DNA of 11,820 bases. It comes from a virus. Its lineage: Duplodnaviria > Heunggongvirae > Uroviricota > Caudoviricetes. How positions within the stretch are numbered: position 1 is the first letter of the stretch; the number at the start of each line of letters is the position of its first letter. Positions 4,945-5,803 of the stretch are shown here, one piece after another. The notes beneath the pieces were generated by a model, which made no database searches, was not told the origin of the DNA, and saw only the letters and a list, made by a program, of their open reading frames with translations. The stretch is taken from the IMG/VR virus record IMGVR_UViG_2690316131_000005; one strand, 5' to 3'. The translations under genes and the position numbers were made by a program.

Positions 4945-5105
4945 GCGGATGGTGCAGGCCTGAAATCATGATACTAACAATGAAGGTAAAATGCATCGGC
5001 AGTCTGATTGGTCGTAGTGAGGCGGCGGTCAGGATGAAAGCCCAGGTTAAGGGAATAAGCCTGATTCTGCGGGGTGATTTTCACCAGTCAACAAAATATC
5101 CGTAG
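4941..5105 (+). CDS. possible small ORF (54 aa) coupled to the upstream gene; doubtful
   Basis: ATG 4941 overlaps the TGA of the 244-aa gene (ATGA). No recognisable family, and the region downstream looks like decayed coding sequence. Confidence 0.2.
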
Positions 5106-5639
5106 CGCGATAACGGTCAAAAATTATGGCGCTGACACTTTTGTGCCACTGGAGATGACTGTACCTAAGTTCAGGGGAGAAGAACACGTCCGGTGGGATG
5201 GTCGGGCCAGATTTAAAGGGCAGGTCATGGCTCCAGCCTGTACGCTGGCAATGGAGGCTGCCTGGCGGGAAATTGATATGGGAACCACGCCACTCAGGGA
5301 TTTACTGCCGGTCCAGAGAATAAATTCCTGTTACGGTTACACCACTGTGATCTTGCAAGTGCAGGAAAGTAGGTCTACACGGTAACGCGAGTGCGTGTAA
5401 CTTTTGATGTCATTCCCGTAGAAACACCGGACAAATTTTCGCTGACAGGTCATGCAGAAGGTATAAATCTGCAGATTATGGACAATTACGGATATCCGGC
5501 AAGAGCCGGAAAAAGCATGCCGCCTCTAATTCTCAGTGGAAGATGGACTTGATTATACTCATTGCATTGTCAGAAATAGTTATCCATTAAAGGCTGGCTA
5601 TTCCAAACAGGATGTTGATTACAAAAATGTAATCAACAT

Positions 5640-5803
5640 GTAAGGTTTATACTCTTCAATATGCGTATAATTTTCCTTATTTTGTTGACTTTAAATAACA
5701 AGCTATGCACGAGGTAAAGTCGGATAAGTTTATCTGGATGTAATATATATTATTTGTAGTGTTTATAACTTTATTTCATGATAACCAATAAAAGGAGTTT
5801 TTT
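5640..5803 (+). promoter_or_regulatory. AT-rich upstream region of the moron gene with several sigma70-like hexamers
   Basis: TATAAT at 5666-5671, TTGACT at 5686-5691, TATAAC at 5764-5769, then AAGGAG RBS at 5792-5797. The transcription start cannot be fixed from sequence. Confidence 0.3.

Follow-up and report, generated by a model that had tools for sequence, protein, structure and literature searches.

In intact Pap-like pili, the H subunit terminates and anchors the fibre, PapH being the termination/anchor subunit of the P pilus. In the Qin prophage of Escherichia coli K-12, the gene order is relBE-hokD. The EHEC prophage CP-933O, i.e. O-island 57 (OI-57), carries two linked markers, paa (adfO, z2053) and a hok homologue named ckf (z2054) (PMC8565820 and PMC9729726). 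An RNA-seq study reports that the contents of the bovine rumen and rectum induce paa (PMC8524897). The window, i.e. the whole stretch of 11,820 nucleotides analysed here (IMG/VR record IMGVR_UViG_2690316131_000005), has 100% matches at this locus in EHEC chromosomes, with a replication module followed by paa and then hokD ("ckf"), and the literature assigns this prophage to CP-933O/OI-57 (PMC9729726 and PMC8565820). The window thus represents an EHEC lambdoid prophage of the CP-933O/OI-57 type. The "moron" of the original prediction, which noted that some 860 bp without a convincing gene separate it from the replication module, corresponds to the AcfC-family adhesin gene paa (adfO). The entire gap (4945-5803) is found at 99% identity or more in 543 RefSeq records from complete E. 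coli genomes, among which are O157:H7, O55:H7, O26, O111, O103, O121, and O145 strains.

We conclude, with high confidence, that these 860 bp are a three-piece mosaic resulting from the capture of the paa moron by a CP-933O/OI-57-type lambdoid prophage, and that they are mostly non-functional. The overall order is phage DNA, a 25-bp filler, a pilin fragment, the paa cassette, ∼90 bp of scraps, and phage DNA again. The gap is thus an ordinary scar, with a pseudogene that PGAP had already annotated, next to the control DNA of a moron that was known before. What is reported below on homologies, junction coordinates, lesions, co-inheritance, and conservation was observed directly.

In the PGAP annotation of an identical record, the left part of the gene order consists of dicB, ydfC, and genes for cI/Cro-like repressors, YdaT, a DnaT-like replication protein, and replication protein P. 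The replication module closes with a DUF1627 gene (4210-4944). It is followed on the + strand by a 54-aa "hypothetical protein" (4941-5105, WP_001505071.1), then by a pseudogene annotated in RefSeq/PGAP as "fimbrial protein; frameshifted; internal stop" (5110-5643, identical sequence), and by paa itself (5804-6562, + strand), which encodes the 252-aa "AcfC family adhesin Paa" and is a periplasmic-binding-protein-like gene with a Pfam SBP_bac_11 match (E = 5.5e-34). The right part consists of hokD and, beyond it, DUF968, RusA, and antiterminator Q genes. The flanks of the gap are as first described, since the DUF1627 gene stops at 4944 and the next intact gene, paa, opens at 5804. The DUF1627 gene carries a PGAP "frameshifted" flag in identical records despite an open 244-aa ORF, and its relatives in two other prophages (L003 and L019) are 248-aa versions with differing 3' ends. 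At the left end of the window, positions 1-143, which in the prophage lie inside or beside a "hypothetical protein" gene, match on the opposite strand a segment of the ETEC B7A plasmid pEB2 (L002 5366-5508, 88.8% identity) that adjoins an IS1 copy.

The absence of an intact gene from 4945-5803 was confirmed by ORF lists, a stop-to-stop scan, and the PGAP annotation of identical sequence. On the + strand, there are only short pieces in shifting frames (67 aa at 4902-5102, 106 aa at 5065-5382, 59 aa at 5373-5549, and 37 aa at 5530-5640), and no stop-to-stop fragment on the - strand is longer than 84 aa. Of the 16 such fragments of at least 30 aa on both strands, the 10 longest were compared with Pfam, and none gave a match at E ≤ 1. 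The original prediction had named a sequencing error hiding a conserved gene as its possible refutation. With 543 records matching the stretch at 99% identity or more, the absence of a gene is real and not an error of this kind. The GC plot that had been proposed for locating the moron gave values of ∼0.50-0.53 up to ∼5400 and of 0.30-0.37 at ∼5400-5850. The moron thus has a deviant base composition when compared with the ∼0.50-0.53 seen on either side of the insert.

Comparison with related prophages, also proposed originally as a way of finding the ancestral genes, did yield an ancestral phage gene for 4941-5112, but the main remnant matches pixH instead. Similarly, the idea that the gap consists of decayed remnants of lost genes was right about decay and wrong about origin, the largest piece being a foreign PapH/PixH-type pilin and only the first ∼170 bp being phage DNA. 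The phage piece was defined by comparison with L003, a related prophage without paa (strain OkiPb01716), which is 89.7% identical to the window over 3166-5112 and diverges beyond. In L003, the DUF1627 gene is directly followed by an intact gene for a 93-aa "DNA-binding protein" (L003 4961-5242), and its alignment with the window shows that 4941-5112 (+ strand) is the 5' half of this gene. The 54-aa ORF aligns with the first half of the 93-aa gene and ends at a CAG to TAG nonsense codon (5103-5105), 7 bp ahead of the junction at 5112 where homology to the phage backbone is over. The sole Pfam domain of the intact 93-aa protein, HTH_23 (residues 58-84), is in the lost half. In L019, a slightly divergent prophage carrying paa, the 54-aa ORF is frameshifted and flagged as a pseudogene by PGAP. 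Because homology is lost after 5112 and a new stop has appeared, the HTH is in the missing half, and the L019 version is frameshifted, the 54-aa ORF is a remnant and not a gene. When compared with L003, ∼2.4 kb of small phage genes preceding hok (DUF4406, DUF7167, and others) have been replaced here. The DNA-binding protein gene would have been cut at this insertion/replacement junction, leaving its 5' half. The next 25 bp (5113-5137), which separate the phage junction from the pilin fragment, are a filler with homology to neither the phage relative nor pixH. Indeed, local alignment of the DNA upstream of 5138 to the 5' end of pixH was no better than that of shuffled sequences (fraction equal to or above the observed score, 0.21).

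The largest piece (5138-5602, + strand) derives from the interior of a PapH/PixH-type minor pilin gene, corresponding to codons 24-184 of 195, and is a pseudogene. It displays 86% nucleotide identity to intact pixH in three sequences (L002, L004, and L008). Besides the full-length prophage matches, there are 266 E. coli records in the 80-90% identity band. Among the matches listed in this band, only window ∼5138-5602 is aligned, at ∼86% identity, and all the matching genes are intact, being annotated as "fimbrial protein", "PixH", or "papH". Intact pixH-type genes have 195 codons and occupy the second position in pix-type Pap-like operons, whose order is regulator, major pilin, H subunit, usher, chaperone, and further subunits. 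Comparison with the PapH structure (PDB 2J2Z chain B, 2j2z_B) gave E = 3.5e-80 for an intact relative and E = 2.4e-49 for the frame-corrected remnant, which aligns with residues 3-160 of the 173 in the chain. A Pfam search with the naively joined translation of the remnant gave no match.

This pilin gene has been disabled several times over. The loss of codons 1-23 has removed the start codon and the Sec signal peptide, and the loss of the last 11 codons has removed the C-terminal strand of the pilin fold (...YYAALRFKLDYE), with homology stopping at codon 184, where the paa cassette takes over (5600-5602). In between, there are a 10-nt deletion (5304|5305), a 5-nt deletion (∼5538|5539), and a CAG to TAG change in codon 105 (5370-5372). 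No usher, chaperone, or major pilin gene is annotated around the matching region, genes which the intact relatives possess. The dN/dS ratio (ω) is 0.35-0.39 between the remnant and intact copies versus 0.08-0.09 among intact copies, which indicates relaxed constraint. Since a value of ∼0.37 is nevertheless below 1, part of the divergence is older than the inactivation. The two most divergent prophage copies examined, which are 98.6% identical, have every structural lesion in common and show 5-7 point substitutions in the 465 bp, so the decay is older than the spread of the prophage family. The pilin piece is a dead passenger and not a working pilin, although read-through transcription from the phage early operon may cross it.

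The third piece (5600-5803, + strand) is the native upstream region of the paa cassette, AT-rich with ∼30% GC, as revealed by its homology with plasmid-borne copies. We examined ten plasmid-borne paa homologues from E. coli, E. albertii, Salmonella, and Citrobacter. In eight of them, homology begins at window position 5600 (three copies), 5604, 5610, or 5618 (three copies), and in five of these eight it ends at 6617-6622. The left flanks beyond this edge differ from one context to another, with the exception of 157 bp common to L009 and L012. Because pilin homology ends at 5602 and plasmid homology begins at 5600-5618, the mosaic junction is at 5600-5602. The original suggestion of an insertion scar marking the entry of the moron was therefore correct as to the scar, but the moron did not enter at the end of the stretch, since phage homology stops at 5112 and the paa unit starts from ∼5600. 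As the unit begins there, the last ∼200 bp of the gap are conserved regulatory DNA of paa. By homology, then, this AT-rich segment belongs to paa and not to the scar. In each context examined, it accompanies paa, and it would be the functional upstream block of this gene.

Two elements stand out in this region. At the left edge of the cassette is the palindrome ATTACAAAAATGTAAT, a candidate operator with a core at 5618-5633 and, in the window, 12-bp arms at 5612-5623 and 5628-5639. Across the ten aligned copies, including the two most diverged ones, this core hardly varies, with two single-base exceptions. A longer block, CATTACAAAAATGTAATCA...GT.AG.TTTAT, is kept in 10/10 copies of the alignment (A1) bar single-base variants, and the two most diverged copies have retained it though the rest of their upstream DNA has drifted. 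The palindrome core is also found 128 bp upstream of a Providencia alcalifaciens homologue (L024) with 67% protein identity. The second element is TATAAT (5666-5671, + strand), a candidate -10 of the paa promoter with no good -35, which is present in eight of the ten aligned copies and is TATAGT or TATGAT in the other two. A consensus scan of 5600-5803 identified no full σ70 promoter. Further downstream, there is a Shine-Dalgarno motif (AGGAG, 5793-5797) in a region that is conserved in the alignment. This footprint (5612-5671) fits a DNA-binding site beside an activator-dependent or otherwise non-canonical promoter, in which the palindrome and TATAAT would be operator and -10, and ∼5678-5803 is probably the 5' UTR of paa. 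Position 5687 is A in L018, L019, and all the plasmid copies, and the G found in the window creates a TTGACT hexamer, which could in principle be a -35-like element. The same A to G change, which is lineage-specific, contributes the 13th match to a perfect 13-nt inverted repeat around the pilin fragment (5086-5098 and 5678-5690). We judged this repeat to be a coincidence and not a signal, its left arm being native phage gene sequence and its right arm native paa upstream sequence.

Because the palindrome sits where homology begins in at least eight independent paa contexts with different left flanks, one may speculate that ATTACAAAAATGTAAT is the end-signal or recombination site of an unrecognised mobile paa cassette of ∼1 kb, one of whose landing sites would be marked by the pilin fragment. 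In a milder form of this idea, the palindrome would be the operator of a regulator of Paa/AcfC adhesins across the Enterobacterales, Providencia included. We know of no regulator or mobility function for this palindrome, and consider such proposals unlikely.

Downstream of paa, there are two hairpins on the + strand, one at 6561-6589 followed by a T-run and hence terminator-like, and another at 6599-6616 (terminator scan, fold z-score -3.0). In plasmid pSTEC299_1 (L013 3350-4354), an IS110-family element lies between these two hairpins, separating the equivalents of window 6586 and 6590-6622. In the prophage, the right end of the cassette is at 6622|6623, where the window diverges, whereas plasmid copies stay alike for another 60-230 bp past 6622. 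The right-hand scar (6623-6712) is composed of scraps, the first of them unassigned (6623-6671). Positions 6620-6658 match an unannotated plasmid stretch between IS91 copies (L007), and 41 bp (6672-6712) match the KilA-N gene of L011, a prophage in which an intact KilA-N gene is directly upstream of hokD. Within this KilA-N scrap is a perfect 24-bp palindrome, CCGATATGGGAATTCCCATATCGG (6682-6705), which is also found inside the intact L011 gene. Homology to the phage backbone restarts at 6709 and 6739, as seen by comparison with L010 and L011, with a hok/sok module (6709-7053, + strand) that comprises a Sok RNA (6751-6900, Rfam sok match of 103.9 bits) and the hokD ("ckf") coding sequence (6898-7053). 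Just downstream of hokD (7062-7143, + strand), there is a sub-threshold match to Rfam isrK (24.9 bits versus a gathering threshold of 50, E = 0.012), an Hfq-binding sRNA known from a Salmonella prophage. At the same position in L003, L010, and L011, which share the backbone, paa is absent and other genes are found between DUF1627 and hok.

The distribution of the two foreign pieces bears on their history. The paa gene is present in 611 of 5426 complete E. coli genomes. It has at least 95% identity in ∼578 records, and 573-574 genomes hold both the remnant and paa. In another 35 records, paa has 80-95% identity and is mostly of the plasmid type, and those examined lack the remnant. Because ∼574 of ∼578 prophage-type paa copies carry the same remnant, the pilin/paa junction probably formed once and was then inherited. 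As for its source, an intact pixH (86% identity to the remnant) occurs together with a paa homologue (87%) on several IncF plasmids (e.g. CP010126). The two are separated by 16-20 kb and surrounded by IS elements, AraC regulators, further fimbrial operons, and toxin genes. On CP010126 (L008, 42-70 kb), several virulence-type loci are packed into 28 kb, namely a paa homologue, astA (EAST1), a second chaperone-usher operon accompanied by two AraC regulators, and an intact pix-type operon. An IS-rich IncF mosaic of this kind may represent the source type of the prophage insert. Most likely, the pilin fragment would have been picked up from an IS-rich virulence-plasmid milieu hosting both pix-like operons and paa homologues, which is a plausible source of paa as well, and the plasmid origin and this order of events are what we infer from the comparisons. 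The best intact pixH found reaches only 86% identity to the remnant, and the 12.7-kb stretch examined of pZ1323HEC0477-2 (L009), which holds the closest paa homologue (92%), has no pixH. An ancestral adjacency of paa and a papH-type gene was rejected, since in 80 loci from other species the DNA within 6 kb of the Paa homologue never contained a PapH-type gene. A search of the junctions for IS ends, target-site duplications, and clear microhomology found none.

Could the pilin fragment nevertheless have been kept for a role in cis on paa, as a promoter, as a spacer or insulator shielding it from phage early transcription, or as a site nucleating silencing? Its linkage to essentially every prophage-type paa copy would fit, as would a promoter-like TTCTCA-18-TATACT (5530-5559) and a weak terminator-like hairpin (5385-5398). 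However, promoter-like and terminator-like matches are no more numerous than in shuffled sequence, common descent explains the linkage (all lesions are common and the copies are at least 98.6% identical), and plasmid paa copies, which lack a pilin fragment, possess this upstream region (5600-5803) too. We regard such a role as improbable. The original prediction also proposed that the stretch may host small RNAs, and a small regulatory RNA or structured RNA element would agree with the conserved, non-coding nature of the region and with the folding of 5603-5803, which on both strands was better than that of shuffled sequences (z = -2.2 and -3.1). This fold signal comes mainly from the 12-bp palindrome, the only strong hairpin, and within its stem only the inner ATTACA/TGTAAT pairs are invariant in the alignment, the outer pairs being broken in most copies. 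The covariation score observed for the outer stem is reached by 268 of 500 shuffles, and what is conserved is sequence, as expected of a DNA-binding site and promoter. In addition, a search of 4945-5803 with the covariance models of Rfam 15 gave no match at E ≤ 1. These results count against small RNAs in the gap, and leave the RNA reading less probable still than a role of the pilin fragment in cis.

Coding function was considered as well. That the 54-aa ORF, or a pilin-derived ORF such as the one of 103 aa at 5074-5385, encodes a functional small protein is suggested by the PGAP call of the former as a CDS and by the overlap of its ATG with the upstream stop codon, which hints at translational coupling. 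But the 54-aa ORF corresponds to the first half of a 93-aa protein, the part without the single recognisable HTH. No Pfam domain is seen in it, its stop is a new nonsense codon situated 7 bp short of the junction, and it is frameshifted in L019, a prophage in which the GTG start of the 103-aa ORF has also been lost. The chance that either ORF is functional is accordingly slim, lower than that of an RNA element. An intact fimbrial gene masked by sequencing or assembly errors has next to no probability. One frameshift might in principle result from such an error, but there are five independent defects here (two truncations, two deletions, and one nonsense codon), with identical sequence in hundreds of independently sequenced complete genomes and no usher or chaperone nearby. 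Equally negligible is the notion of a decayed relBE pair, for which there is only the analogy of a position upstream of hokD. Every segment longer than 25 bp is explained by other homologies, the stop-to-stop fragments tested contain no RelE/RelB or other Pfam match, and related prophages hold DUF4406, DUF551, DUF977, or KilA-N genes in this slot. The statement that relBE is not recognisable here thus holds. A mosaic scar left by paa capture remains the reading that we favour.

This reading explains a non-coding-looking gap in the medically important OI-57, with little significance beyond a tidy annotation. That paa arrived in a patchwork still holding a fragment of a Pap-like pilus operon would fit a virulence-plasmid origin. 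The palindrome/-10 footprint offers a starting point for studies of paa/adfO regulation, and the pilin remnant could serve as a lineage marker distinguishing prophage-type from plasmid-type paa.

How does the locus compare with known systems? Like PapH/PixH, the corrected remnant aligns across the pilin domain, and pixH is 86% identical at the nucleotide level, but the prophage copy is an internal fragment with two frameshifts and a stop, isolated from usher, chaperone, and major pilin genes. With the paa moron of CP-933O/OI-57, the window shares a 100% identical locus and the same gene order. The pilin remnant, the cassette bounds, and the palindrome footprint are not described in PMC8565820 and PMC9729726, which treat genes only. 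What appears to be new, and only modestly so, is that paa would be a sharply bounded cassette of ∼1 kb (∼5600-6622) whose left edge is marked by a conserved palindrome and a putative promoter footprint. The paa/AcfC homologues on IncF/IncI plasmids of E. coli, E. albertii, and Salmonella have this ∼1 kb in common with the prophage copy (from ∼5600-5618 to ∼6617-6622, 85-92% identity), including the upstream palindrome, TATAAT, coding sequence, and two hairpins. In contrast, none of the ten plasmid copies adjoins a pilin fragment, and their flanks are IS elements, toxin genes (sta1 and astA), and fimbrial operons. Finally, the window resembles Qin/Rac-type prophages in its O/P-like replication genes, DUF1627, small accessory genes, and hok/sok, around a slot that is highly variable, and differs from them in that relBE is absent and a pilin fragment and paa stand in place of the accessory genes.
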